The position numbers and the translations under genes are program-made. A DNA stretch of 54,490 nt from an uncultured Bacilli bacterium (GTDB lineage Bacteria; Bacillota_I; Bacilli_A; RF39; UBA660): positions 1 through 54,490 of the forward strand of contig CALVRD010000002.1 of the NCBI GenBank assembly GCA_944358435.1, given 5' to 3'. The notes under the pieces were generated by a model. The model searched no databases and had not been told where the DNA came from. It saw nothing but the letters and a program-made list of their open reading frames with translations. Shown one piece after another: positions 4,617-41,334 of the stretch (the first letter of the stretch is position 1; each line of letters opens with the position of its first letter).

Positions 4617-6458
4617 TTAGTCCTTTATTTCATAGTTTTCAATTACATTTTTATATAGTTCAGGATATAATTTGGATTCCTCATTTAAAGCATCTAAGTA
4701 AAGAGATATTTCTTCTTCATCTACTTTGGTAGTTCTTTCATAAATTAAAATATTAAAACCATCATTCATATCAAATTGTTCAATTAATTTAAATTTATTA
4801 TTTTCTACTAATTCTTTAAATACATCATTATATTTATATTCAATAGAAACAGATTCAAAAGGATCAATAGTTAGTATGTATTTAGCATCGAATAGGCCAT
4901 ATGGGAATTTGTGACTACCAATTATGGCTGAACCATATGCTAAGTAATTAGATATTGTTTTATCAGGCATAAAAATATTGCGAAATTTATCAGGATTATA
5001 TTTTCTATTATGACAAATCATATAGGCTATTTCATTTTCATTAATATGTTCTTCTAACCAAGTAGCTACTTCAACATACTGAGGATAGTTTTCTTCACTT
5101 AGAACAGTTAAATTTATTTTAGTAAATAAGTTATCTGTGGTATTAGATAAAAGGCCATTTAAGAAGTTAACTATTATAATAGAAAAAATTACTAGACAGC
5201 ACCTAATGTCATATGATTCTTTGGTATTAATAAAGTAAATAAAGCATAAATATAAGAAATATAAATAATTAGGTAGAAGAATTGGACTATGATGAAGTCC
5301 CATATTTTGAATTCTAGTAAATAAGAAAATCATAAGGAAATAATCTATAACATTTAAAATAGTTAGTAGTCGATATTTCTTTGAAACTAGTCCATATATG
5401 GCCCCCATTAACATTAGTATTAACATTAAATAACCTAGATGACTTAACTGAGAAGTCATTTCAGTTTTAAATCCACCATCCAAATAAAAAGCTGAATAAT
5501 TACCAATACTACCAAATAAGATATTTTTAAGCATTGGAAATAAAGTTAATATAAAGAAAATAATTACTATAATGGCATATAGACAAATATTTTTAAATAT
5601 TGCTTTTAGGGACTTTTTGTCTTTGAAGTTTAGAATAATAATTCCAATTAGATAACAGAAATAATAACTAACTATCCAATATATATACCATCTTCTAGAG
5701 ATAGTAAGCATAAATGTTATTAATAGTAAAAGAATTAATCTTAGCACTTCTAATTTTTTAAAATCATAATTTATAGTTAATGAAATAATTAGAAAAATAA
5801 AAGCTAAGCCAAAGAAGTCTGGTTGACCATAAATGGCTGTTGCATGAAAAATTGGAAATAGTACTGTAGTTAAAAGAGCTAGATTAAAGAAAAGTGTTTC
5901 TTTCTTTACTTGGAGCTTTTCAGATAATTTTTTTAGAAGAATTCCAAGAGTAATAATTAAATATGGTGTATAGGCTAAGATATAACTTAATATATAACTA
6001 TTTATTGTTTGATTCGTAAATCTAAAAATAATTTCTGGGAAAAATGATAGGAAATTACCATATTCTCCTGACCAAGTAGAACTAATAAAATATCTGATAC
6101 CATCAAGCAGACTAATTGCAAAATGTTCTTTAGATGCTAATCCTATATTGTAGTAGCAAGCATAGTCAAAAAAATACAAAAATTGACGATTTAAAATACT
6201 TATTATGTAGAAAAGATACATTAAAATTATAATTATAGTCATTCCAATAAGTTCTTTTTTGGTAAATTTTACTTTTAATAATTTTAGGACTTCTCTAACT
6301 ATTATAATTAAGAAGAAGTTAGCTAAGAAGCTAATTGATGTGAAACTATAACTATTAGGATAAATAAAATTAATTAGAAGTATTATGATAGTTAAAATAG
6401 TAAAAGTAGAATAAATTATTTTATCTTTTTTTGATAGTTTTTTTAAGTAGTCTTTCAT
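4617..6458 (-). CDS. Large polytopic membrane protein, putative GT-C-fold glycosyltransferase that would use a polyprenyl-phosphate sugar
   Basis: The 613-aa product has about 12-14 hydrophobic helices in its first ~430 aa and a ~170-aa soluble C-terminal domain. It lies 1 nt downstream of a GtrB-type polyprenyl-phosphate glycosyltransferase gene. The function is inferred from architecture and context only. Confidence 0.55.
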   Translation of the reverse strand: MKDYLKKLSKKDKIIYSTFTILTIIILLINFIYPNSYSFTSISFLANFFLIIIVREVLKLLKVKFTKKELIGMTIIIILMYLFYIISILNRQFLYFFDYACYYNIGLASKEHFAISLLDGIRYFISSTWSGEYGNFLSFFPEIIFRFTNQTINSYILSYILAYTPYLIITLGILLKKLSEKLQVKKETLFFNLALLTTVLFPIFHATAIYGQPDFFGLAFIFLIISLTINYDFKKLEVLRLILLLLITFMLTISRRWYIYWIVSYYFCYLIGIIILNFKDKKSLKAIFKNICLYAIIVIIFFILTLFPMLKNILFGSIGNYSAFYLDGGFKTEMTSQLSHLGYLMLILMLMGAIYGLVSKKYRLLTILNVIDYFLMIFLFTRIQNMGLHHSPILLPNYLYFLYLCFIYFINTKESYDIRCCLVIFSIIIVNFLNGLLSNTTDNLFTKINLTVLSEENYPQYVEVATWLEEHINENEIAYMICHNRKYNPDKFRNIFMPDKTISNYLAYGSAIIGSHKFPYGLFDAKYILTIDPFESVSIEYKYNDVFKELVENNKFKLIEQFDMNDGFNILIYERTTKVDEEEISLYLDALNEESKLYPELYKNVIENYEIKD

Positions 6459-6459
6459 C

Positions 6460-7416
6460 TTAATTCTCCTCTAAGTTTTCAGAAATAATATAACGTGGTC
6501 TTTGTTTGGTTTCATTATACATTTTTCCAATATATTCTCCAATAATACCAATACTAATCATTTGTAAACCACCAATAAACCAAATAGAAATTGATAAGAA
6601 AGTCCAACCATCTACTGTATTTCCTAGTACTTTTTGAACTAATGAATAGATCATTATAATAATACTAATTAAGAGAATTAAAAAGCCTGTTATACAAATA
6701 AATCTTAGAGGTTTAACACTAAAGGAAGTTATTCCATCCCAAGCAAAGTTTAGCATTTTCTTTAGGGGATATTTAGATTCTCCGGCAAATCTTTCATTTC
6801 TATCATAATAGATAATATCTGATTGATAACCAATTAAAGGAAACATTCCTCTTAAGAATAAATTTACTTCTTTAAAGTTAGAAAATTCGTCTAAGACTTT
6901 TTTTGATGTTAAGCGATAATCAGCATGATTATAAATAACATCAGCTCCTAAGAATTTCATAATTTTATAAAATGATTCCGCTGTAAAGCGTTTAAAGAAA
7001 GTATCTTTTTCACGGGATTTTCTAACTCCATAAACTACATCAGCTCCATTTAAATACTTTTTTAGCATTTGATCGATGGCATTAATATCATCTTGAAGAT
7101 CAGCATCCATACTAATTACAACATCAGCATACTCTTTAGCCGTCATTAAGCCAGCTAACAAAGCATTTTGATGGCCTCTATTTCGAGATAAAGTTATACC
7201 AGTAAATAATGGTTCTTTTTCATGATTTTGTTTGATAATTGACCAAGTATTATCTTTTGAACCATCATTAACATACATAACTTTACTATTAGGAGAAATA
7301 ATTTTATTCTTAATTAGACTAGTCATTTTCTCTTTCATTCTTTTTGTATTTTCTGGTAATACTTCTTCTTCATTATAGCAAGGTATTACAACATATAAAA
7401 TTGGTACTCTTTTCAT
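6460..7416 (-). CDS. Polyprenyl-phosphate glycosyltransferase (GT2, GtrB / CsbB / ArnC-like)
   Basis: Motifs are VVIPCYNEEEVL, VNDGSKDNTW and MDADLQDD. Two C-terminal TM helices (FICITGFLILLISIIIMIY and SIWFIGGLQMISIGIIGEYI) are diagnostic of the GtrB/DPM1-like subgroup. Confidence 0.85.
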   Translation of the reverse strand: MKRVPILYVVIPCYNEEEVLPENTKRMKEKMTSLIKNKIISPNSKVMYVNDGSKDNTWSIIKQNHEKEPLFTGITLSRNRGHQNALLAGLMTAKEYADVVISMDADLQDDINAIDQMLKKYLNGADVVYGVRKSREKDTFFKRFTAESFYKIMKFLGADVIYNHADYRLTSKKVLDEFSNFKEVNLFLRGMFPLIGYQSDIIYYDRNERFAGESKYPLKKMLNFAWDGITSFSVKPLRFICITGFLILLISIIIMIYSLVQKVLGNTVDGWTFLSISIWFIGGLQMISIGIIGEYIGKMYNETKQRPRYIISENLEEN

Positions 7417-21464: not shown

Positions 21465-23327
21465 TTAAATTTTTTTACTTGGATTTAAGCAAGACTTTAA
21501 TTTTACATATTCTTGATCAGTTAAAGTACTACCAGATACAACACTAGATAATAAGCTTTCTGGTGTTAAAGATGGAGATTTTTCTAAATTACGTTTTACT
21601 TTATTCTTAGAAATTATTACTCCAGCAAAACTATAAGTACGTTTTGTATTGATGTAGTTTTCTAATGATTCAGTTGATTCTCTTGATGTTTCATTACTCT
21701 CTTCTATTACTTGTTCTTGATAGTCAACAGCATTATATAAGTAGTCATAAATTTCATCATTAGGAACATAGAACTTATCAGTTGTTAGAACAGCTAACAG
21801 TTCATCTTTTGTATCAATTGGAATATTTAGAGTTTTTACAAGTCTTAGTCTAGCAAAACGATCTTTATAATTTAATAAATTTAAGTCTTCTTCTAAGTAG
21901 TCTTCATATCCTAATTCTAATAATGTATCTATTGAATGAGATAAATCTTCTTGGGCTAAGAAAGAATGATTTAGGTCTGTTTTTAAAGATGAGATTAACT
22001 CATAGTCTAATAAAACTTGATAATTTTCTTGTAGTAGAACTGGTTCGGTTAAAAGAATACTACCGGTATTAAATGCTTTAGGATTGGCCTTTTGCTCAAC
22101 TAAGAAATCAAGATTATTCATAAGAGAGGCATACTCAGTTGAATATTTATCAAATAATGACTCATTATTAATAACTAAATCATTAGTTATAATTTCTTTA
22201 GAAATAAGTGATGTTAATCTAGCAATTGTTTCACTATCACTGGTTGATACTGCTTTTAGCAAAATACTTGGTGTAGTCAATCCAACGGAAGTTAAATCTT
22301 CAAATATTTTAGAGGCATCTACTAGTGATTTAGTCATTGCCATTTCTACGTTATGATCGTTTGATAAAATACCATATTTAGCTAAAAGTACTTGATAATG
22401 AGATTTGTTATTAGCAGAAAGTTCATTATATTCAGCTGCCATCTTAGAATAAATTTTTTTATTATGTTGATAGATTAATCTTAAAGCTTCTAATCTTACT
22501 TTAGGACTTGGAATTTTACTAAGTAACTCTTCGGCATTTCTTATTTCACCACCACTTAAGGCTTTGATAAGGTCTTGTTTTAGCCTATCATACATAATAT
22601 TGGCTTTAGCTAGTTTTTTTTTATTTTTTTGGTCAGTAATTATAGCATTCTCGCCTCTTTTAATGGCACAATTAATTATATCCATTAAAGTTTCAAAATT
22701 TATCTTTCCTTTCAAATCTTCTTTGACTAATTTTTTTATATTAGAATATGACATATTCTTATTAGCTTCTGAATAATTATTAAATGATGATAAAACAATT
22801 TGAAGGGCCATTTTTGTATGAATTGCTGTTGTAACTCCATCTAGACAAGCATGTAGTATTTTTAAAAATAGAGCAGTTTCTTCTTTTGACATATTCATTT
22901 TTTTTATTAAATTATCAATTTCTTTTAATCTTTCACTTTGAGCTTTTGATTTTTTATCTAAAAAAATTAATGGGAAAAATAAAAAACCATTAAGATAAGA
23001 AGATGCTTCTAAATATTTATCTTGGTCAACAACAATATCTTTTAATTTATCAAGATATAGATAAATTTTGCTTATTGATTTATCATTCATAAAAGTCAAA
23101 ATAGATGCCAAAATTGTTTCCATTTGATCATGACTCAGATTCGGGTAATAATCAAATATTATCGCAGTCATTAAATTTAAATCGTCTAATTTGGCAGCTT
23201 GTATAATGTCAGTTGGAGTACCATCTTTTAAGAGATTCTTATAAAAATCAATTCGTACATCTTCAGTATCTAATTCATCAATATTTTTTTGCTTTTCTTC
23301 GGCAATAGCATCTAAAAATCTAAACAT
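21465..23327 (-). CDS. Hypothetical 620-aa all-helical protein of unknown function
   Basis: This is a long uninterrupted ORF. Its ATG overlaps the stop of the upstream gene by 8 nt, which implies translational coupling. It has no TM segments and no catalytic motif I recognise. The C-terminal ~300 aa shows a Leu-rich ~30-35-aa periodicity. Confidence 0.7.
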   Translation of the reverse strand: MFRFLDAIAEEKQKNIDELDTEDVRIDFYKNLLKDGTPTDIIQAAKLDDLNLMTAIIFDYYPNLSHDQMETILASILTFMNDKSISKIYLYLDKLKDIVVDQDKYLEASSYLNGFLFFPLIFLDKKSKAQSERLKEIDNLIKKMNMSKEETALFLKILHACLDGVTTAIHTKMALQIVLSSFNNYSEANKNMSYSNIKKLVKEDLKGKINFETLMDIINCAIKRGENAIITDQKNKKKLAKANIMYDRLKQDLIKALSGGEIRNAEELLSKIPSPKVRLEALRLIYQHNKKIYSKMAAEYNELSANNKSHYQVLLAKYGILSNDHNVEMAMTKSLVDASKIFEDLTSVGLTTPSILLKAVSTSDSETIARLTSLISKEIITNDLVINNESLFDKYSTEYASLMNNLDFLVEQKANPKAFNTGSILLTEPVLLQENYQVLLDYELISSLKTDLNHSFLAQEDLSHSIDTLLELGYEDYLEEDLNLLNYKDRFARLRLVKTLNIPIDTKDELLAVLTTDKFYVPNDEIYDYLYNAVDYQEQVIEESNETSRESTESLENYINTKRTYSFAGVIISKNKVKRNLEKSPSLTPESLLSSVVSGSTLTDQEYVKLKSCLNPSKKI

Positions 23328-24312
23328 TTTCGTTCGCCACCTTTTCTTTTACTAATGGTGAATCTTTAGTAGTATTTCTAGAAAGAATTGAAAATAGTTC
23401 TTGTTCATATTGTTCATTTAAAGCTAAAAACTCGGCATTTAATAAATTATTTTTTAAAGTTCCTTTAATAGCTAAAAAATCCCGATACTTTTTTTCTAAT
23501 GTAGTTCTATAACCTAAATTATTGTTATCTTTCTTAGTAAAGGCTGTTATAGCTGCATAATAATTATCTTGTAATCTGACAAAAGCTACACGAACTTTGA
23601 AGGCCTTTACTTGACTTAAACCAGTTAGTTCACTGTTACCACTAAAACGTTTATATTTTTTAAAAGTTCCGTTTTTTATAGATTGGAATAAACTTAAAAA
23701 TCTATTGTAGTAAGCTGGATCAATATGTTCAATTTCTTCTAATACCTGAATATTTCCACTAGTAGTTGGAACAAATATTATTTTGTTTTCTATTGCTTCT
23801 TCTTTAGGTTGCTCTTCTTCTTTTTCATTAGAATTAAAACCTTTATCAATTAAAGCTAATCTTTTTTGTTCTAATAATAAATCGTCTTTAAATTCAATAG
23901 CTTCTTCGATAGTCATACCTTCATCGGCTACAACATCTCTTATCTCTTTAATATTTTTCATTACTTCAGCTTTAAGTCTATATAAAATTCTTTGATATTG
24001 ATAATCATCAGTTTCTGGTAAAATCTCTGTATCATCACTTTCAAGTTCTTCAATAGTGGCTTTTAATAATTGCTGGTAGTAGAAAGCTACTTCGTCTTCA
24101 AAGGCTTTATCAATATTTTGATTATCAATATTATTTTGTTTTTTCTTTCCTATTTTAGTTTCTTGCTCTTGACTTTGACCAATAGTTGATGTAGTTTTTC
24201 TTAATTTATCTATTTCACTAGCCATAAGTCTTGCAGTTTTTATATTATCAGAAATAGCGGCCATAAGTTCTTCTTCGGTTACATCATCTAAGTCTAATAC
24301 TGTAAAATCCAT
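23320..24312 (-). CDS. Hypothetical 330-aa protein: acidic/coiled N-terminal half and a C-terminal region with a RelE/HigB(Gp49)-like sequence pattern
   Basis: The start ATG at 24310-24312 (MDFTVLDLDD) has a GAGGGGG RBS. The longer ORF-track start would overlap the promoter. The C-terminal segment FKKYKRFSGNSELTGLSQVKAFKVRVAFVRLQDNYYAAITAFTKKDNN resembles the strand pattern of RelE/ParE-superfamily toxins. That resemblance is pattern recognition only. Confidence 0.65.
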   Translation of the reverse strand: MDFTVLDLDDVTEEELMAAISDNIKTARLMASEIDKLRKTTSTIGQSQEQETKIGKKKQNNIDNQNIDKAFEDEVAFYYQQLLKATIEELESDDTEILPETDDYQYQRILYRLKAEVMKNIKEIRDVVADEGMTIEEAIEFKDDLLLEQKRLALIDKGFNSNEKEEEQPKEEAIENKIIFVPTTSGNIQVLEEIEHIDPAYYNRFLSLFQSIKNGTFKKYKRFSGNSELTGLSQVKAFKVRVAFVRLQDNYYAAITAFTKKDNNNLGYRTTLEKKYRDFLAIKGTLKNNLLNAEFLALNEQYEQELFSILSRNTTKDSPLVKEKVANENV

Positions 24313-24340
24313 TGTAATCCCCCTCTTCAATTTCTTGTGT

Positions 24341-24369
24341 ATTATACCATAAAACATGATAATTTGCAA
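24341..24369 (-). promoter_or_regulatory. Strong sigmaA-type promoter of the 330-aa/620-aa operon
   Basis: The minus strand reads TTGCAA-17 nt-TGgTATAAT (perfect -10 with an extended TG), about 28 nt upstream of the start codon. Confidence 0.7.
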
Positions 24370-24457: not shown

Positions 24458-25161
24458 CTATTTATTTTGCTTTGATGCTAATATTTTTTGATAAATTTTA
24501 GGAGTCTCTTTATAATAACTTGAAGTTAAACGAGATTTAGGTAAATATCTGCATGGTATCTTTGTTTTTAATCTTCGATTTAATTCATCAAGTGTTTCTG
24601 TTACGGCATCGGGATTATCCATGTAGATAGCTAAATATCTAGTTTCTTTATTTTTTTATTAATTTAGTTAAAGCTTTTTGTTGAATTTGATGACATCTTT
24701 CTTGAAAAATATCAAATATCTTTGCTGCATCTATAAGCAATACTGGTTCTTTATCATAAGTATCTAGGTCATATCTTAGTTTTAAAACTTCTAATTTTCT
24801 TGGAGTTAATTTGGTTGAGACAATTAATTTATCAACATTAATTACTAATGATGGTTTTTCTTCAAAGTTACTCATTTTTGAAAATAAGTAACGTTCAAAA
24901 TAATTATTTATTGATTTTTTAGGATCAATACTATTATTTTCATTTAATTCTAATTTTATTTAGGATTCTAGTTGTTCAATCATTTTTCTTCAATAAAATT
25001 TGTTAGCTTATATTGTGGATCTTCTTGAATCATATTAAGCATCTTCAAAACAATTTCTAGCTATTTTTAAATAGTCTTTTGATGATAGATTTATATATCC
25101 TATCAAAGAATAAAATTCTTCAAAAACAGGTATCACTTTATAGCTTGTTTTTTTTATTCAT
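24458..25161 (-). pseudogene. Decayed fourth sigma-70 paralog: N-terminal extension fused to region 4, with regions 2-3 deleted and multiple stops and frameshifts
   Basis: The RBS and ATG at 25159-25161 are retained. After MNKKNKL*, an A8 run shifts the frame. The next frame reads ..EEFYSLIGYINLSSKDYLKIARNCFEDA*YDSRRSTI*ANKFY*RKMIEQLES*IKLELNENNSIDPKKSINNYFERY.., with four in-frame stops. This is homologous to the N-terminus of the 594-aa sigma (FYNRYAFTGLSREEFNNFASNCLHDAKY...INNYLERI). A region-4 HTH follows (LTPRKLEVLKLRYDL...FQERCHQIQQKALTKLIKK*). After an A7-run frameshift the sequence continues ETRYLAIYMDNPDAVTETL, as in the intact copies. Confidence 0.8.
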
Positions 25162-25180: not shown

Positions 25181-26638
25181 CTATTTTTTTGCTCTTACTT
25201 TTCTTTCTGTTTGACTTTTATTATTATTCTTTTCATTAATTTTTCTATCTAGTTCTTGTTCTTGGTGACGTAGTCTTGTTACTTGTTCTTGAAGTTCTAA
25301 TGTTTCTTGTAGTTTTTTACTACGTAGTTTTTTCTTTTCTTTTAGTGTTTCAGTTTCTGTTACAACGTTTGGTATATTTAAACGAATTACTTCTGGTTTT
25401 AACCTATCTATTATTTCTTTATGGAAGCGATTATGCATTTTTGGCGAAAGTGGGCCTTTTTCAGTACTTCTATAATTAATTAGCCAACACTCTTCTGGAC
25501 TTAATAATGGAGCAAGTAATCTTTCATAGTGTTCTTTTGAAATATTTAGAATTTCATATATATGTTTTCGTCTTTCTGGTAGCTTATCGGGTTCTATACC
25601 AGTTATTTTAGGATCATTTTGTTCATTTTCAGCAATTACAATTTCTTTAGGGATGCCATTTTTTTGAAATTCTTCATATACTTCTTCAGCAATGATATGC
25701 GAATAATCTCGATTACGATAAGGAGTTTTAGATAATTGTATTGAGGTTGCTCTTGCAATATCTGGTCGATCCATATAAATAGCTAATTCTCTTGTTTTAG
25801 GATGACTTACTAGTTTCCCTAATACTCTTTCAATTATCTTTTTGACCCCAGTATGTGTAATTCCTATTATGTTTCCAACTTCTTTTATACTTTTCATTGA
25901 TTGGTCAGGTTGGCCTATACCATATCTTAATTTAATAACGTTTATTTCTCTTTCCGATAACCCCGCTTCTTCAAGTAATTTTATAATTTCTGGGGTTGTG
26001 GCTTGATTAAAAAGTTTTTCAGATAAATCTTGATCATCAAGAGAAAATGTATCAATGAATCTATCTTCAGAATCAGTATTTATTATATCATTATAACTAA
26101 TAGTCGATGGCGTAGTTAGAAACTGTTCTAATTTAGATGTAGACATTCCTAATTTTTTAGCTAGTTCTTCAGTTGTATGTTCTTGATTATTATGCTCATT
26201 GCAGTCATTTATTACTTTTTCAATTTTTTGTAGTTTGAATTGTAATTCAATTGGAAGATGAATATTTCTACTTTTAAAAATTATGGCTCTTGAAATTGCA
26301 TTCGTAACCCAGCGAATTGCATAGGTTGATAGAGATATTTTACTATTACAATCATAATTATTAATGGCAAAGATTAATCCAAACACTCCTTCTTGAAACA
26401 TATCATCAAAGTCAAGTCCCCTATTTTGATAATTTTTAGCAATTCTTACTATTGTATGAAGGTTACTAATAATTAACTTATTTCTAGCATCATAATCTCC
26501 ATTTTGAGCTTTTATAACTAATTCATTTGTTTGTTTTTGATTAAGGACTGGGTACTCTTTTGTAGTTTCTAGATAAATTTGGATGCTTTCATCAGAAATG
26601 TTATCAAACGTCTTTTTTCTAAGATTAGTTTGAGTCAT
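25181..26638 (-). CDS. RpoD-like sigma-70 factor paralog (485 aa) with a ~195-aa extension after region 4
   Basis: Region 1.2 is IQIYLETTKEYPVLNQKQ. Region 2 is ISNLHTIVRIAKNYQNRGLDFDDMFQEGVFGLIFAINNYD...STYAIRWVTNAISRAIIFKSRNIHLP. Region 4 is LSEREINVIKLRYGIG...EVGNIIGITHTGVKKIIERVLGKLVSHPKTRELAIYM. The extension ends in LQETLELQEQVTRLRHQEQELDRKINEK. Confidence 0.9.
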   Translation of the reverse strand: MTQTNLRKKTFDNISDESIQIYLETTKEYPVLNQKQTNELVIKAQNGDYDARNKLIISNLHTIVRIAKNYQNRGLDFDDMFQEGVFGLIFAINNYDCNSKISLSTYAIRWVTNAISRAIIFKSRNIHLPIELQFKLQKIEKVINDCNEHNNQEHTTEELAKKLGMSTSKLEQFLTTPSTISYNDIINTDSEDRFIDTFSLDDQDLSEKLFNQATTPEIIKLLEEAGLSEREINVIKLRYGIGQPDQSMKSIKEVGNIIGITHTGVKKIIERVLGKLVSHPKTRELAIYMDRPDIARATSIQLSKTPYRNRDYSHIIAEEVYEEFQKNGIPKEIVIAENEQNDPKITGIEPDKLPERRKHIYEILNISKEHYERLLAPLLSPEECWLINYRSTEKGPLSPKMHNRFHKEIIDRLKPEVIRLNIPNVVTETETLKEKKKLRSKKLQETLELQEQVTRLRHQEQELDRKINEKNNNKSQTERKVRAKK

Positions 26639-26669
26639 TGTTTCACCTTCTCATTATTTTAGTTAAATG

Positions 26670-27869
26670 TTAATTTTTCATTTTAGTTAGAGGCTTATTT
26701 TCTGAAATGCAAGAGGTTCTTTTTTGGGCAATTGCTTCATCTAGTTCTTGTTCTCTTCTATGAAGTAATGTTCTTTGTTCTTGAAGACTTAATGTTTCAT
26801 CTAATTTTTGAGCTTTAGCAGCTTGTTTTTCTTGAAGTTCTTTTGAAATACCATTTTTTCTAATTTCTTCGTAGGTTTTTTCGGCTTTTGAATGATAATA
26901 ATGACTTACATATTTTTCAGTACTTATTATTTGTTCAGCAGTTGCTTTACCTACATCTGGACGTGCTAAATATATGGCAAGAGCTTTTGTCTTAGGATTA
27001 GTAATAAGTTTTCCTAAGGCTCTTTCCATAATTCTACTTGCTCCTGCTTTAGTAATTCCAAATTGTTTCCCTATTTCATCAAAACTATATGTTCTACCTT
27101 CTAGACTATCTATGCCAAATCTTAATTTTAAAACTTTAATTTCTGTTTCTGATAGATTTGTATCGTCAAAAAGTTTTTCAATTTCTTCTTTTGATATTTT
27201 CCCAAATAAAGCATCAGATAAATCTGAATCATCAGCAGTAAGATAATCGCCTATTTCTTCTTCAGATTCTTCACTTAATTTTTCATTATAACTTATAGTA
27301 TAAGGAGCTACTAATAGTTTTTCTAATTTATCTAGTGGCATTTTCAAACTTTGAGCTAGTTGTTTTGTTGTTGGTTCCGTATGATGATCATAAATATATT
27401 TTCTTCTAGCTTGCTCTACTTTATATATTTTAATTTGCTTTCTAATAGAAAGATGTATATTTTTACTTTTAAAAATTACGGCTCTTGCAATTTTATTCAT
27501 AATCCATTTTCCCGCATATGTTGATAGTTTTGCTTCTTCATTAATGTCATATTTTTGAATGGCAATTATCAAGCCAATTATTCCTTCCTGAATAAGGTCT
27601 TCTAGATCAAGTCCTTTATTTTTATAAAAATTTGCAATTTTAATTACTAAACGAATATTACTAAAAATTAGTAAGTCATTTGCTTCTTGATCGCCGTTTT
27701 GAGCTCTAATAACAAGGTCTTTTACTGTTTGTTGGTCAAGAACTGGATAGTTTTGAGTTTCTCTTATATATATTTTAGCTAGTCTATTAGGATTAGATGT
27801 TTTAAGTTCTTCAGTTAGTTCTTCAATTAATAAGTCTTCTTCTGGCTCTATCTGATTTAGTTCACTCAT
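26670..27869 (-). CDS. RpoD-like sigma-70 factor paralog (399 aa) with a ~97-aa extension after region 4
   Basis: Region 1.2 is AKIYIRETQNYPVLDQQ. Region 2 is FSNIRLVIKIANFYKNKGLDLEDLIQEGIIGLIIAIQKYD...STYAGKWIMNKIARAVIFKSKNIHLS. Region 4 is LSETEIKVLKLRFGID...IGKQFGITKAGASRIMERALGKLITNPKTKALAIYL. The tail is LDETLSLQEQRTLLHRREQELDEAIAQK. Confidence 0.9.
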   Translation of the reverse strand: MSELNQIEPEEDLLIEELTEELKTSNPNRLAKIYIRETQNYPVLDQQTVKDLVIRAQNGDQEANDLLIFSNIRLVIKIANFYKNKGLDLEDLIQEGIIGLIIAIQKYDINEEAKLSTYAGKWIMNKIARAVIFKSKNIHLSIRKQIKIYKVEQARRKYIYDHHTEPTTKQLAQSLKMPLDKLEKLLVAPYTISYNEKLSEESEEEIGDYLTADDSDLSDALFGKISKEEIEKLFDDTNLSETEIKVLKLRFGIDSLEGRTYSFDEIGKQFGITKAGASRIMERALGKLITNPKTKALAIYLARPDVGKATAEQIISTEKYVSHYYHSKAEKTYEEIRKNGISKELQEKQAAKAQKLDETLSLQEQRTLLHRREQELDEAIAQKRTSCISENKPLTKMKN

Positions 27870-27883
27870 TATTTTTTCTCCCC

Positions 27884-28051
27884 TTAATTTTTTTGATTTT
27901 TTAAAAGTTCTTCTAGTTCTAATTTTTGAAGAATTAATTCTTTCTTTTTAATTGACAATTCAAGGGCTTCTATTTCATCTTTTAGTTCTTTATTTACTAG
28001 ATCAATTGCTTTTATTTCACGATTTATTTTTTCTAATAGCTCTTGTTCCAT
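27884..28051 (-). CDS. 55-codon coiled-coil ORF overlapping the 3' end of the 594-aa sigma gene; probably the detached C-terminal tail of that sigma
   Basis: It is not on the ORF track because it is under 60 aa. My translation is MEQELLEKINREIKAIDLVNKELKDEIEALELSIKKKELILQKLELEELLKNQKN*. The same frame is open from 28102 and reads NVHYQKKLRKARLKF before the ATG, which aligns with KKLRSKKLQETLELQEQ in the 485-aa paralog. There is no convincing RBS of its own. Confidence 0.4.
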   Translation of the reverse strand: MEQELLEKINREIKAIDLVNKELKDEIEALELSIKKKELILQKLELEELLKNQKN

Positions 28052-29801
28052 AAACTTTAACCTTGCCTTTCTTAGTTTCTTTTGGTAATGTACGTTTTTG
28101 TTCTATTACTTCCTCAGTAATACTAGAACATAGCTCATTAATTGAATTATAATATTCTGCTAGTTCTTCATCACTTAAACTTTCTAATTCTTCAGCTGTA
28201 TAATTTTTTACTGGTTGATGGTCAGCAATCTCAGGAAATACTATAGGTCCATTTACTCTTATATCTTCATAGACATCATATGAATCTTGGAGAACATAAG
28301 TTGACTTTTTGGAATTTTCCTTTCTGAGTGCTTGAATTGTCTCTAAAGCAACCGTTGGACGTTGCATATAAATAGCAAAGGCTTCAGTGTCTGGACATTT
28401 AATTATCCTTGTAAATCCTGCTAAAATTATTTGACGAGCCCTTTCATCAGAAATACCCATAATTTGAGCAATATCTTTAAGTGCCATAATTTCTCCTGTT
28501 TCAAAGCCATATCTTAATCTTATGGCAAATTCTTGTCTTGGCGAAACATTGGCTTTTTTAAATAAATCAGATATTTCATTTGGAAGATTCTTTCTACTTA
28601 AGACATCTACTATATCATCAACATCTTCTGGAGTTAAATCTTCAATATCTTCATCATCTTCAAAAAAATCATTTTCTAAAGCAGGAGAATTAGAACTTAT
28701 TGTATGTGGATAACTATTTAGTTTTAGTATTTCTTCATCTGAGACTCCAAGTATGGCTGCAAATTCTTTTATAGTTGGCTCATGTCCATACTCTTTAATA
28801 TATCTTCTTTTAGTTTCTTCAAATTTATAAAATTTTGAATGAATATCAGCAGGAAGACGAATTGTTCTAGAATTGTCACGCAAAGTTTTTGTGATAAAAC
28901 TTTTTACCCACCAGACAACATAAGTTGAAAAGTTATTTGTACTATTTATGTCATATTTATCAATGGCACGCATTAAGCCAATTAATCCTTCTTGAAGTAA
29001 ATCATCTTGATCGTAACCTATTGCATAGTATTTTTGAACCATATGGGAAACTAAACTGATGTTACTTTCTATTAATAAATTACGGGCTTCTTCATTACCT
29101 TGTCTAGCTTGAGTAATAAGTTCTTTTATCTTTGCCTGACTTAGTTTTTTACTATGAAGCATTGTAGATTTGCAACCTTTAAAAACATTAGAGTTTTCTT
29201 TGCTACCTAATTCTCTAACTGTTTTTTTAGTAAAAAAACTTTTATCATCATAATCATTTACTTCTATTTCAGAAATGTCGAGCCCCTTTTTCTTACAGTA
29301 GGCTTGAATGAATATAGTGGTTATTGGAGCATATAAAAAGATATCACCATTAGTAAGTTCTTTAATATCATGTGTAAAAATAGCATCTAATGCTGAACTT
29401 AGTCTTTGATTACGTTCAATTAAAGTAGTAGCCATTTCTAAGGAAAGATTATACCCAAGAGACTCTAAGAAGTCATCGGCTTTAGAAAGCCGTTTTATAA
29501 ATTCATACCATTTTGCATTTATAGGAATAATTCTTTCTAAATAGTTATTTATAAGCTCTTCTTCTCTTTTTTCTAATTGTTTTTTAGTATAAGCATTCAT
29601 TCTTTCAGTTAAAATATCCGCATATAATTCTAAAATTGTTTTTGGAGAAGTATTTTCAGCATACTTAGCATCATGTAGACAATTAGATGCAAAGTTATTA
29701 AATTCTTCTCTAGAAAGGCCGGTAAAAGCATAACGATTATAGAAACTTTTTGTTATTAGTGATAGTTGAAATTTAATGCTTTTATTATGCTCTGATGTCA
29801 T
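28017..29801 (-). CDS. RpoD-like sigma-70 factor paralog (594 aa) with a ~230-aa N-terminal extension and a C-terminal extension
   Basis: The start ATG at 29799-29801 (MTSEHNK) has a GAGGGGG RBS. The ORF-track start would overlap the promoter. Region 2 is ESNISLVSHMVQKYYAIGYDQDDLLQEGLIGLMRAIDKYD...STYVVWWVKSFITKTLRDNSRTIRLP. Region 4 is VSPRQEFAIRLRYGF...IAQIMGISDERARQIILAGFTRIIKCPDTEAFAIYM. Confidence 0.9.
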   Translation of the reverse strand: MTSEHNKSIKFQLSLITKSFYNRYAFTGLSREEFNNFASNCLHDAKYAENTSPKTILELYADILTERMNAYTKKQLEKREEELINNYLERIIPINAKWYEFIKRLSKADDFLESLGYNLSLEMATTLIERNQRLSSALDAIFTHDIKELTNGDIFLYAPITTIFIQAYCKKKGLDISEIEVNDYDDKSFFTKKTVRELGSKENSNVFKGCKSTMLHSKKLSQAKIKELITQARQGNEEARNLLIESNISLVSHMVQKYYAIGYDQDDLLQEGLIGLMRAIDKYDINSTNNFSTYVVWWVKSFITKTLRDNSRTIRLPADIHSKFYKFEETKRRYIKEYGHEPTIKEFAAILGVSDEEILKLNSYPHTISSNSPALENDFFEDDEDIEDLTPEDVDDIVDVLSRKNLPNEISDLFKKANVSPRQEFAIRLRYGFETGEIMALKDIAQIMGISDERARQIILAGFTRIIKCPDTEAFAIYMQRPTVALETIQALRKENSKKSTYVLQDSYDVYEDIRVNGPIVFPEIADHQPVKNYTAEELESLSDEELAEYYNSINELCSSITEEVIEQKRTLPKETKKGKVKVYGTRAIRKNKS

Positions 29802-29828
29802 AAATCTTTCCCCCTCTAATCGGCACAT

Positions 29829-29857
29829 ATTATAGCACGGAGGACTTATTTAGTCAA
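29829..29857 (-). promoter_or_regulatory. Near-consensus sigmaA-type promoter of the sigma-factor array
   Basis: The minus strand reads TTGACT-17 nt-TGcTATAAT about 28 nt upstream of the first sigma start codon. Confidence 0.7.
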
Positions 29858-29899: not shown

Positions 29900-29933
29900 A
29901 AAAACTTAAACAACAGACAGTGTCTGTTGTTTT
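29900..29933 (-). terminator. Intrinsic terminator of the addBA operon
   Basis: The near-perfect palindrome AACAACAGACA g TGTCTGTTGTT is followed on the minus strand by TTTAAGTTTTT, about 50 nt past the addA stop. Confidence 0.7.
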
Positions 29934-39294: not shown

Positions 39295-41334
39295 TTATTT
39301 TAAATCTTCTTTGTTAGCAATCATTTCAAGTGTTGCTTCATTGATAGCATCATCTAGTGTTTTAATCTTATCTAGAATCATACTATAACCAACTGCTGCT
39401 CCAAATTCGTGTGGAAGACTCTTCATTTCTTTAGATAACTTTTTAGCGTAAGTTTCAACTTGTCTTTCACTATAGCCGACTAAGTATACTAAGAATTCAT
39501 TGCCGTCTGTACGAATTATTTCACTATTTTCTAGTTGAGTATTTACTAATATTCCAGCCGTTTTAATAATTAGTTGATCTCCTTCTTCATGACCAAAATT
39601 ATCATTAACGTATTTAATATTATTTAAATCAACCATTACTATAGCTTGTGGATATACTTTATTTTCTTCCCATTCTGGCATTTTTGCATTTAAATAATTA
39701 CGATTTTTTAAGGAAGTTAACATATCAGTATATTTATGTCTTTCACTAGTTTTTACTTTTTTAATTTTCTTTTTCTGTTTATATATTAAATAGATAGTTA
39801 GAACAACTACTAATGGAATAAAGACAATAGCTAGGGCAATTATATATGCTTGTTCTAGTGTTGAATCTTCTAAAATTGAAGCATGTAAATTTTCTATTCC
39901 ACTATTACGATAATTATAATATGAATTTGTATTAATTATATAATTGAACAAATCATAGAAGGCTTCATTATTCTTTTTAACCATAAATTTATAGTCATTC
40001 ATCATGGTATCTAAATATAATAAATTATAATCTTTAAACTTAGTTGTTTGATAGTAATTATATATTTCACGATCTAAAACAATTAATTTATTTTTAGCTT
40101 TTGATAATAATTCATCAATATTTTTATAACCAGTAATATTGGCTCTAGAATTTGTTGAAAAATAATTAAATAGTGAATCATCTTCTAGCATAGCAATTTG
40201 TTTATCTTTTAAACTTTCAAATGATGTAATAACATGATTATCTTTTTGATATCCTAAGACAACATATTCTTCAATAAAGGTTGATAATGTTGCATAATAT
40301 TTATCATTATTATAGTTATAATAATCAAAGTAAACATCTATTTCTCCTTTATCAATAGCTTTTTGTAAGTCTTCTTTTGTTTCATATTCTTTGTAGTTAA
40401 AATTAACATCTGTAAGACGAGCTATTCTATCTACATATTCTCCAGCAATACCTGCGACTTTACCATTTACTTTTACTTCATATGGAGCATTTGTTACGTA
40501 ACCATATGTATAGTTTTTAGAAATTAAAGCAGTTTTAGTTTTAGCTGATAAATTATTTTTTTGGACATAGTAGTTTAAATAATTTTCATTATATTCATCA
40601 ACATATTTTGTTAAACGCCATTTATTATAATATTTTGTTACTATTTTATTTAATTCATCATTATCTTTACTTAGAGTTAGAACAATTTGTTTTTTCATTT
40701 CAGTTAAATAATAATTTATGAAATACTTATCTTTTTCAATTGTGTAATCTAAGTACATTATATTAGGCATAACTATCATATTTACTTCATTATTATCTAA
40801 AGCATTATACAAGTCTGTAATATTTTTATATTGTTTATAAGAAAGATTAGTTCCTCCTTTTAGATAATAACTAACTTCTTCAGCATCTTCTTCAAAAACC
40901 CCAAAAGTAATATTTTTCATATCTTTTGTATGATTAATACGTTCATATGTTTTTCCAACTACTATGTAATTATCATTAAATAAGAATAAGTTATCTTTTT
41001 TTAGACTTTTATCATTATCAAGTATTTCAATACGATATCCTGTTGTAGTTGGTGCTGATGATTTTAAATAAGGAATTATATTAAATTCTATACCAACATT
41101 TTGTTGAAAGTCATTTATAAAGTTAAAAATTACTCCTTCACCATTCATGGCATATAGTGGATAATCATTTACCACTTCAAAGTCATAAGTTTTACCATTA
41201 TTTTTTTCAACCCAGCGTTTTTCACTAACTGTTAGTGTTGTCGTTTTGTCTTCTTTATTATAGTATCGGTATACTAATAGAAAGACAACTGCAGCTATTA
41301 TGATGGGAATAAATATAATTAGTTTTTTTTTCAT
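39295..41334 (-). CDS. Membrane receptor: two extracytoplasmic solute-binding-protein-like domains, a TM helix, and a cytoplasmic GGDEF domain with a degenerate active site (DGNEF)
   Basis: There is an N-terminal TM and a ~460-aa extracytoplasmic region, followed by a second TM (YIIALAIVFIPLVVVLTIYLIY). The GGDEF domain then reads YTDMLTSLKNRNYL...VMVDLNNIKYVNDNFGHEEGDQLI...IIRTDGNEFLVYL. Confidence 0.75.
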   Translation of the reverse strand: MKKKLIIFIPIIIAAVVFLLVYRYYNKEDKTTTLTVSEKRWVEKNNGKTYDFEVVNDYPLYAMNGEGVIFNFINDFQQNVGIEFNIIPYLKSSAPTTTGYRIEILDNDKSLKKDNLFLFNDNYIVVGKTYERINHTKDMKNITFGVFEEDAEEVSYYLKGGTNLSYKQYKNITDLYNALDNNEVNMIVMPNIMYLDYTIEKDKYFINYYLTEMKKQIVLTLSKDNDELNKIVTKYYNKWRLTKYVDEYNENYLNYYVQKNNLSAKTKTALISKNYTYGYVTNAPYEVKVNGKVAGIAGEYVDRIARLTDVNFNYKEYETKEDLQKAIDKGEIDVYFDYYNYNNDKYYATLSTFIEEYVVLGYQKDNHVITSFESLKDKQIAMLEDDSLFNYFSTNSRANITGYKNIDELLSKAKNKLIVLDREIYNYYQTTKFKDYNLLYLDTMMNDYKFMVKKNNEAFYDLFNYIINTNSYYNYRNSGIENLHASILEDSTLEQAYIIALAIVFIPLVVVLTIYLIYKQKKKIKKVKTSERHKYTDMLTSLKNRNYLNAKMPEWEENKVYPQAIVMVDLNNIKYVNDNFGHEEGDQLIIKTAGILVNTQLENSEIIRTDGNEFLVYLVGYSERQVETYAKKLSKEMKSLPHEFGAAVGYSMILDKIKTLDDAINEATLEMIANKEDLK

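Follow-up and report, generated by a model that had tools for sequence, protein, structure and literature searches.

The window analysed here is the whole 54,490-nucleotide stretch of contig CALVRD010000002.1 from an uncultured Bacilli bacterium. It is a chromosomal stretch of a walled Firmicute, with 27% guanine plus cytosine (GC), that carries PASTA, LytR and LtaS-type genes together with addAB, gatAB, ligA and rplU; its sequence is also matched by a 58-kb scaffold of an ENA metagenome assembly. The interval between addA and rplU holds, in order on the minus strand, three sigma-70 genes, a decayed fourth copy and two orphan genes encoding proteins of 349 and 620 amino acids (aa). The three intact sigma factors, 29-46% identical to one another, continue well beyond region 4.2, and these C-terminal tails are the subject of the present analysis. 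On the evidence of homology and profile comparison, this species has its own, reduced version of a sigma tail that is lineage-wide and partly derived from sigma region 4. The three genes, defined from open reading frames (ORFs) and Pfam matches, are the following.

28017..29801, minus strand: sigma paralog 1, 594 aa counted from M10, with an N-terminal extension of ~225 aa, regions 2-4 and a 114-aa tail.
26670..27869, minus strand: sigma paralog 2, 399 aa, with regions 2-4 and a 97-aa tail.
25181..26638, minus strand: sigma paralog 3, 485 aa, with regions 2-4 and a 195-aa tail.

Pfam recognizes regions 2, 3 and 4 only in each of these ORFs. Sigma70_r2 and Sigma70_r4 exceed their cut-offs in all three, as does region 3 in the 485- and 399-aa copies, with region 3 of the 594-aa copy slightly under it (21.4 vs 25.3 bits). 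Region 4 ends at aa 276 of the 485-aa protein, aa 288 of the 399-aa protein and aa 473 of the longer ORF of paralog 1, which spans 28017-29828 and encodes 603 aa from its first ATG (29828); the NCBIfam RpoD C-terminal model (238 positions) is exhausted at aa 288 of the 485-aa copy and aa 301 of the 399-aa copy. Known sigma factors of groups 1-3 end shortly after region 4.2, which for RpoD/SigA was the premise of a preliminary description of this DNA and is consistent with the end of the RpoD model. From these limits, the tails measure ~195, ~97 and ~114 aa in the 485-, 399- and 594-aa copies, RpoD/SigA being only a loose yardstick of tail length for sigmas that have diverged into alternative ones. 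The preliminary description had given the same three lengths, and its span of 25184-28361 runs exactly from the end of the 485-aa copy's tail to the start of the 594-aa copy's tail. An origin of the tails in stop-codon read-through, frameshift or misassembly, fusing a sigma gene to a downstream ORF, is refuted and receives practically no weight: each of at least five assemblies, obtained independently from different samples, shows the three ORFs uninterrupted and in the same arrangement, and the paralog tails are homologous in frame to each other and to other members of the family described below.

The elements that make up the tails are located as follows.

28020..28361, minus strand: tail of the 594-aa copy, with element (i), box (ii), an acidic helix and a basic end, without the zipper motif.
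28323-28361, minus strand: element (i) of the 594-aa copy, RPTVALETIQALR.
28248-28274, minus strand: box (ii) of the 594-aa copy, VYEDIRVNG.
26673..26963, minus strand: tail of the 399-aa copy, with element (i), box (ii), a zipper-like helix and a basic end.
26925-26963, minus strand: element (i) of the 399-aa copy.
26850-26876, minus strand: box (ii) of the 399-aa copy, TYEEIRKNG.
26721-26810, minus strand: zipper-like helix of the 399-aa copy, QKLDETLSLQEQRTLLHRREQELDEAIAQK.
25745..25783, minus strand: element (i) of the 485-aa copy, AIYMDRPDIARAT, in which the last part of the canonical sigma C-terminus meets the first part of the family-wide post-4.2 helix.
25655..25681, minus strand: box (ii) of the 485-aa copy, VYEEFQKNG, within a predicted helix (tail residues 34-51).
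25379..25573, minus strand: insert specific to the 485-aa copy, a probable single degenerate copy of a ~70-aa region-4-derived module, RRKHIYEILNISKEHYERLLAPLLSPEECWLINYRS...RFHKEIIDRLKPEVIRL.
25187..25366, minus strand: terminal 60-residue helix of the 485-aa copy, with the zipper core KKLQETLELQEQVTRLRHQEQELDRKINEK at 25229-25318.

Elements (i) and (ii) occur in all three intact copies at the very sequences first reported for them. The preliminary description had further held that every sigma paralog is tailed and that each tail closes in a charged coiled coil. The first statement stands for the cluster and for one further gene, encoding a 795-aa paralog, and its scope is those genes. The second stands in part: a zipper profile search found the terminal element (iii) only in the 399-aa copy, the 485-aa copy and the 795-aa paralog, and because the tail of the 594-aa copy ends differently, a common coiled-coil end for every copy is not correct. 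In tail-only BLASTP comparisons, the relatedness of the 485- and 399-aa copies far exceeds chance, as judged from alignments of both the proximal part (expectation value, E, 1.6e-10; 46% identity) and the terminal helix (E 4e-9; 50%), and the tail of the 594-aa copy gives a marginal match to the others (E 0.004-0.5). This last tail closes with an acidic helix, TAEELESLSDEELAEYYNSINELCSSITEEVIEQK, which resembles the stretch preceding the zipper in the 795-aa paralog (E 0.02), followed by a basic end, with a net charge of +7 across its final 20 residues. The last 20 residues of the 485-aa copy have a net charge of +6, and the range over all three tails is +4 to +7.

Between paralogs, the zipper is 43-50% identical, though these proteins are only 30-46% identical overall. 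In each of the three proteins that bear it, Leu is invariant at the d position of three consecutive heptads, the a positions are T/A, V/R, E and I (V/R/R in the three-way alignment), and K/R-rich stretches come before it. A coiled coil is plausible for the predicted terminal helix, and a stable one is not assured, because there are only three clean heptads and two of the four a positions are polar.

The 795-aa paralog was recovered by an exhaustive HMMER search of 1.84 billion representative proteins, in which the tail of the 485-aa copy minus its terminal helix served as the query. Four proteins matched: a strain variant of the 485-aa protein, the 399-aa paralog, the 795-aa sigma (P0129) and one spurious repeat protein. 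A word-index protein search with the 485-aa copy's tail alone returned no match, though a 93%-identical strain variant is present in that database, and this outcome was treated as a limitation of the tool, whose negatives on short, charged queries deserve no trust. The N-terminal extension of P0129 is homologous to that of the 594-aa copy (E 4e-21), and past canonical regions 2-4 the protein carries, in order, AFASYMDNPDVALKT, a degenerate box (ii), the module, a long linker, a helix like the end of the 594-aa copy, and a zipper that matches those of the 399- and 485-aa copies at E 4.6e-8. P0129 or its 795-aa cluster-mate P0271 lies on a separate contig, beside a zinc peptidase gene, in 4/4 samples having the window cluster. 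Given this co-occurrence, P0129 most probably belongs to the same genome as the cluster, as its fourth intact paralog and not as the orthologue of another organism. It retains canonical SigA-type -10 and -35 recognition residues and could be the organism's principal RpoD-like sigma. At its locus (L053 7300-9687; also L054-L056 and L003), the zinc peptidase gene comes before it and four small orphan genes (367, 178, 120 and 93 aa) come after.

A profile of the four proteins recovered a wider family of sigma-70 proteins of ~480 to 1347 aa, with tails of up to about 860 aa. Typical members comprise a conserved N-terminal extension of ~220 aa (range about 200-230), a core of regions 1.2 to 4 in which the canonical recognition residues are kept, and a post-4.2 helix, (F/L)A.YM..P(D/E)..L.NI..FR..Y, which is element (i). 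There follow 1-8 copies of a ~70-aa module (TIYEYF..YTKEQVD..L..LTEEEK.LL.LRYG.DL.NP...KLTKEQ..KFYG.LIPKMRRLL) and, after the modules, a second sigma-4-like domain of ~90 aa at the C-terminus. In hhalign comparisons, the module profile matches region 4 with a probability of 95.5% (E 1.6e-8) vs 0.1% for a region 2 control, and the terminal domain matches region 4 at 97% (E 9e-11, 58 collinear columns) vs 0.6% for the same control; by these profile alignments, module and terminal domain descend from sigma region 4. The terminal domain has a charge of -3.2 per 100 aa vs +7.2 in true region 4, its recognition-helix equivalent is acidic and the basic DNA-contact residues are gone, which counts against sequence-specific DNA reading by the typical tail. 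No Pfam, NCBIfam or PHROG model covers the post-4.2 helix, the module or the acidic sigma-4-like domain, and no family member reaches the RpoD equivalog cut-off.

Among the GTDB species representatives scanned, typical tails were found at 44 loci, all from uncultured gut metagenome-assembled genomes (MAGs) of 22-32% GC and nearly all labelled Bacilli, Tenericutes, Mollicutes or Erysipelotrichaceae. One family locus (L006, contig CANQZY010000110.1) was binned under the label uncultured Methanobrevibacter, where a sigma-70 gene of bacterial type is most likely a binning contaminant. The same module and acidic sigma-4-like domain are also borne by shorter SigK/SigE-like sigmas of 463-516 aa (L008, L015, L016, L018, L019 and L021), of which the L018 protein (5182-6723) was scanned as SigK/SigE-like with regions 2 and 4 only, and MAG SUG1454 holds both kinds, SigK/SigE-like (L015) and long RpoD-like (L023). 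In addition, the module heads 18 MAG proteins of ~410-465 aa (L029-L046, e.g. L046 5992-7266), occupying their first ~75 residues (E 1e-20 to 1e-26) ahead of a putative helix-turn-helix segment, recognized by eye, and a calcineurin-like metallophosphoesterase domain; the module is thus not confined to sigma factors. The layout of P0132 (1347 aa, on an NCBI MAG contig of 24.9 kb), with eight near-identical tandem modules with spacers and two terminal sigma-4-like domains, suggests that module number may grow and shrink by tandem duplication.

The genomic settings of the family vary. In some MAGs, its genes stand among housekeeping genes, in the orders frr-sigma-nusB and polC-sigma-rpmB; no DnaG-like zinc-finger motif occurs beside any member across loci L001-L056. 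Two long tailed sigma genes lie in tandem at L027 (2756-4561 and 4588-6378), and tandem duplication of the family is therefore not confined to the window. In two MAGs, a phage-type tyrosine integrase gene lies directly upstream of the tailed sigma (L004 3232-4323 and L021 2208-3302), and some family members may ride on integrated elements. The tails were found neither in phage or plasmid collections, searched by tblastn, nor in two scans of IMG/VR, which counts against a phage or plasmid origin.

The window genes connect to this family through several parts. The N-terminal extension of the 594-aa copy, which is absent from the 399- and 485-aa copies, matches long sigmas of other species at E 1e-9 to 1e-6. 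A profile of element (i) that drew on 24 family members, all from other species, was run against the 276 window ORFs and detected the 594-aa copy (E 3.9e-5), the dead copy (E 1.4e-4) and the 485-aa copy (E 6e-4), so that the presence of element (i) in the dead copy, claimed earlier from the sequence, is borne out; the 399-aa copy was missed by this profile, yet it aligns to the post-4.2 helix. The link of the 485-aa copy's module to the family runs through the 795-aa paralog only: the insert, which has lost the module core RYGxDLxNP, matches the module of the 795-aa paralog at E 5e-11 by BLASTP, and that module matches the family module profile at E 4.9e-10, the direct comparison of insert and family profile being weak (E 0.08-0.4). 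No copy of the module was detected in the 399- or 594-aa copies. Neither the window copies nor the 795-aa paralog have the second sigma-4-like terminal domain; all of them end in other helices.

Box (ii) and the zipper, in turn, are lacking from typical family members. Strict copies of box (ii) occur in this species' paralogs only, with the degenerate version in the 795-aa paralog, and, on the question raised in the preliminary description of whether the box occurs outside sigma factors, no match was found elsewhere. Neither box (ii) nor the zipper was found in any other organism among the 1.84 billion proteins, the GTDB species representatives, two JGI metagenome scans and IMG/VR; scanning the GTDB representatives and the JGI metagenomes with the subgroup's tail and zipper patterns gave pattern matches and no confirmed relative. 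Judged from these comparisons, the window genes are diverged tandem paralogs within the long sigma-70 family of uncultured low-GC gut Bacilli. The appendage appears to have been remodelled here in three ways: in all copies, the post-4.2 helix is followed by a species-specific helix bearing box (ii); one degenerate module is kept in the 485-aa copy alone among the window copies; and, on the 399-, 485- and 795-aa paralogs, a conserved helix with Leu at every seventh position and a basic end stands in place of the terminal domain.

The tail, which could at first be matched to no known domain, can accordingly be related by element (i) and the module to a region-4-derived family appendage. Whether it is simply the ordinary SigA C-terminus of the lineage has a divided answer, as element (i) and the module are lineage-wide on RpoD-like sigmas, some of them among housekeeping genes. 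Conservation across related genomes is divided in the same manner: element (i) and the module are conserved, and neither box (ii) nor the zipper turned up in another organism among those searched.

To characterize the fold of the tail, a structural model of the 485-aa copy's tail was generated using AlphaFold2 from a 14-row alignment, with a mean predicted local distance difference test score (pLDDT) of 79.6. Element (i) is predicted to be helical at tail residues 6-14 and 16-28. The module is modelled as four short helices (pLDDT mostly 82-89, with a dip to ~65 mid-module), and tail residues 149-208 form one uninterrupted 60-residue helix (pLDDT ~97-98). The linker before the module is poorly predicted, with pLDDT ~52 at tail residues 61-80 and <50 at residues 328-355 of the full-length model. 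That full-length model has a mean pLDDT of 68.8 and a predicted template modelling score (pTM) of 0.31, and the tail is not confidently packed on the sigma body. Beyond weak, chance-level Pfam matches at E up to 10, the tails have no Pfam match, and they match nothing in the PDB by sequence and nothing in PHROGs. Between two strains, the ratio of nonsynonymous to synonymous polymorphism (pN/pS) is 0.29 in the tails vs 0.31 in the sigma cores, and the tail of the 795-aa paralog is not fast-evolving, likewise from few substitutions; within the limits of such small counts, the tails appear to be under constraint similar to that of the core.

These data bear on the view that the tails are decaying leftovers of the family appendage, which would be shrinking, would have persisted since duplication mainly through inertia and would do little at present. 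Their content is indeed patchy, since the module persists only in the 485-aa copy and is degenerate there, the zipper is missing from the 594-aa copy and one copy is dead; the poorly predicted linker ahead of the 485-aa copy's module and the confinement of box (ii) and the zipper to this organism among all those searched also fit. However, the proximal part and the zipper are conserved between paralogs as much as the sigma core or more, pN/pS is low, the reading frames are intact in every assembly seen and the helices are predicted at high confidence, and we regard decay as improbable.

With respect to function, we lean tentatively, at somewhat less than even confidence, towards protein docking or oligomerization, in which the zipper would pair the paralogs or bind another partner. 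This reading is favoured because the residues for reading DNA are gone from the terminal domain of the family and because the module can be carried by more than one sigma class and by an enzyme; the presence of the same tail on SigK/E-like sigmas and of the module on metallophosphoesterase proteins is behaviour typical of a portable interaction domain. Since the tail begins directly after region 4.2, oligomerization, tethering and self-inhibition all stay reasonable ideas. As a docking device rather than a promoter reader, the tail would project from region 4 at the upstream face of the holoenzyme, and its Leu stripe would pair with the matching helix of a second tailed paralog, or with some other partner. 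Such pairing would set the amount of each sigma that is free for core polymerase, or its site of action, and the basic end may contribute a non-specific contact to upstream DNA. In a broader and rather unlikely version, which would apply throughout a lineage of uncultured gut Bacilli, RpoD-like and SigK/E-like sigmas and an unrelated enzyme would share a portable region-4-derived appendage, and through it all of them would dock to one site or partner, peculiar to the lineage, on the transcription machinery, the zipper tails of the window being a paralog-pairing variant; if true, the shared appendage would give sigmas a new, built-in level of competition or regulation.

Several points weigh against docking through the zipper. 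Dimerization, like any particular partner for the tail, is a proposal, the structural models being of monomers; the clean heptads are only three, with polar residues at two of four a positions, and Foldseek, which the preliminary description had proposed to run on a model of the tail, returned no structural analogue of the 485-aa copy's tail in the PDB (best E 4.8). The 594-aa copy is without a zipper, and one mechanism therefore cannot cover all copies. Furthermore, the 795-aa gene is placed in the same genome by co-occurrence in 4/4 samples rather than by a closed assembly, few substitutions (11 synonymous, 12 non-synonymous) underlie the comparison of the tails between strains, and the strongly basic ends suit DNA contact as well as docking.

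Region 4 of sigma sits on the -35 element, and the tail begins at that point. Together with the net charge of +4 to +7 on the last 20 aa of all three tails, the K/R-rich stretches ahead of the zipper and the AT-rich upstream DNA expected of a genome with 27% GC, this argues for an extra DNA contact upstream of the -35 element: the zipper flanks and basic end would bind AT-rich DNA non-specifically, possibly as a zipper dimer, and stabilize the closed complex in a manner comparable to the action of the alpha C-terminal domain on UP elements. Such a role is unlikely to be the principal one, however, as the typical tail ends in an acidic sigma-4-like domain without DNA-contact residues, so that DNA binding is not the ancestral role of the appendage; the N-terminal flank of the zipper, judged by eye from the sequence, is unlike the basic region of basic leucine zipper (bZIP) proteins, and the module is also fused to an enzyme.

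In-cis autoinhibition, in which the tail would fold onto regions 2 or 4 and keep the sigma inactive until a signal releases it, has a precedent in extracytoplasmic function (ECF) sigmas such as ECF41 and ECF42, whose fused C-terminal extensions modulate activity with no anti-sigma factor (PMC3426412, PMC8999054). In typical family members, a region-4-like decoy would compete for the beta-flap tip, and the module and terminal domain are region-4-derived as a decoy would be; moreover, no anti-sigma-like gene was recognized beside the cluster. The window copies, on the other hand, are without the region-4-like terminal domain and have lost the module in two of three cases, the AlphaFold2 models do not place the tail against the sigma body with confidence, and the presence of region 3 sets these proteins apart from ECF sigmas. 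We consider autoinhibition about as unlikely as upstream DNA contact, and docking or oligomerization remains the reading that we prefer.

The class of the sigma factors was assessed from profile scores, recognition residues and locus. The best profile matches of the window sigmas are RpoD, RpoS and SigB-type models, with 143-160 bits for RpoD_Cterm against a cut-off of 354 and 129-154 bits for PRK09210 against 572; no window sigma reaches any NCBIfam equivalog cut-off, and none has a Pfam match to region 1.1 or 1.2. Relative to the canonical recognition residues WWIRQ..T (region 2.4) and TRERIRQIE (region 4.2), those of the 399-aa copy (STYAGKWIMNK; ITKAGASRIM) and of the 485-aa copy (STYAIRWVTNA; ITHTGVKKII) have diverged, and the 594-aa copy has WWVKSF and SDERARQII. 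The usual arrangement of rpoD in Firmicutes is the dnaG-rpoD operon, and the window cluster sits instead between addA and rplU. A housekeeping SigA/RpoD identity of the window copies was rejected on these grounds. The failure to reach any RpoD cut-off, together with the altered -10 and -35 residues of the 399- and 485-aa copies, identifies the three window genes at the sequence level as alternative sigmas, not RpoD; for these two copies, a new promoter specificity is predicted.

The window proteins share regions 2, 3 and 4, an origin by duplication and altered -10/-35 recognition residues with alternative sigma-70 factors of groups 2 and 3; however, known sigmas of groups 1-3 end a few residues past region 4.2, whereas the window sigmas run on for 97-195 aa. 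From the wider long-sigma family, they have the N-terminal extension (594-aa copy), the post-4.2 helix and a low-GC uncultured gut Bacilli host, and probably, by way of the 795-aa paralog, one module (485-aa copy), but they differ in the lack of the terminal sigma-4-like domain, in the added box (ii) and in the zipper carried by two of the three; the 399- and 485-aa copies are also without the N-terminal extension and the canonical promoter-recognition residues. With leucine zippers, the terminal helix has in common the invariant Leu at three positions seven apart, a long predicted helix and charged flanks, but it comprises about three heptads, is polar or charged at two of four a positions and, by eye, has no bZIP-like basic region.

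ECF sigmas with C-terminal extensions are the nearest functional analogy. In ECF41, ECF42, ECF44/CorE and ECF56, a domain fused past region 4 is proposed to control the sigma in place of a separate anti-sigma factor (PMC3426412, PMC8999054, PMC7730460). ECF sigmas, however, belong to group 4 and have regions 2 and 4 only, with SnoaL-like, tetratricopeptide repeat or Cys-rich extensions, whereas the window sigmas possess region 3 and their tails, without a Pfam match, consist of region-4 derivatives and a zipper-like helix. The literature searched in full text describes C-terminal extensions only for ECF sigmas and contains nothing on region-4-derived or zipper tails of sigmas of groups 1-3. 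MzaA, a long sigma-70 protein of the MZA anti-phage system, has a model that the window proteins match at E 1e-40 to 1e-43 (NCBIfam) and 3e-24 to 5e-32 (PADLOC); the match is limited to the generic sigma part (model positions ~430-716), and the extra mass of MzaA is N-terminal. Membership in MzaA or the MZA system was rejected, with 137-149 bits against a cut-off of 800 and no other defence-system protein recognized by PADLOC among the five cluster proteins.

Additions at the C-terminus of sigma factors have been known and understood almost only in the ECF group, and here RpoD-like and sporulation-type sigmas carry recycled region-4 modules, a conserved zipper-like helix having taken the place of the tail end on several paralogs of one species. 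Should the tail dock to polymerase, another sigma or a regulator, it would provide a new control of sigma choice in reduced-genome uncultured gut bacteria, a group whose regulation is, to our knowledge, essentially uncharted. The post-4.2 helix, the module and the acidic sigma-4-like domain also supply three sequence signatures for MAG annotation. The weight of these findings is limited by their restriction to uncultured organisms and by a role read from sequence.

The genes encoding the 349- and 620-aa orphan proteins (21465-24369, minus strand) lie directly downstream of the sigma cluster. Both are conserved in a close strain, and no homologues occur beside other family sigmas. Neither protein has a Pfam, NCBIfam, PADLOC, PHROG or PDB match or a zipper motif, and with no database match and no counterpart beside family sigmas, they were dropped as recognizable anti-sigma factors or partners. 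The C-terminal third of the 349-aa protein shows, by eye, a likeness to RelE/ParE- or Gp49-type toxin motifs. Elsewhere in the window, in an otherwise housekeeping neighbourhood, a 679-aa protein (39295-41334, minus strand) combines a C-terminal GGDEF domain with an N-terminal ~530 aa without assignment.

Upstream of the cluster, two features relate to the expression of paralog 1.

29829..29857, minus strand: strong SigA-type promoter-like site, TTGACT-17 bp-TATAAT with an upstream TG (11/12 matches), just upstream of paralog 1.
29908-29932: terminator-like hairpin, after addA and ahead of the first sigma gene.

The promoter-like site comes from a consensus scan alone, and such sites are not enriched across the region as a whole. 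Its -10 hexamer ends at 29829, one base before the ATG at 29828, so a transcript from this site would probably begin downstream of that ATG. This position, together with the 594-aa gene calls in other assemblies, makes M10 (29801) the most likely start of paralog 1, with a product of 594 aa and not 603.

The decayed fourth copy lies at the distal end of the sigma array.

24458..24875, minus strand: dead sigma copy, with a region-4 ORF at 24648-24875, a frameshift and the start of a tail at 24458-24622; regions 2-3 are missing.

Its region-4 ORF matches the 399-aa copy at E 1.4e-7. The tail fragment carries ..AIYMDNPDAVTETL.. and matches the tail of the 485-aa copy at E 5e-4; it also includes ..AIYMDNPDAVTETLDELNRRL.. 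Within the same fragment, the stretch ..ETPKIYQKIL.. resembles the start of the module (TIYEYF / RIYELL), and by this resemblance the dead copy may once have borne a module.

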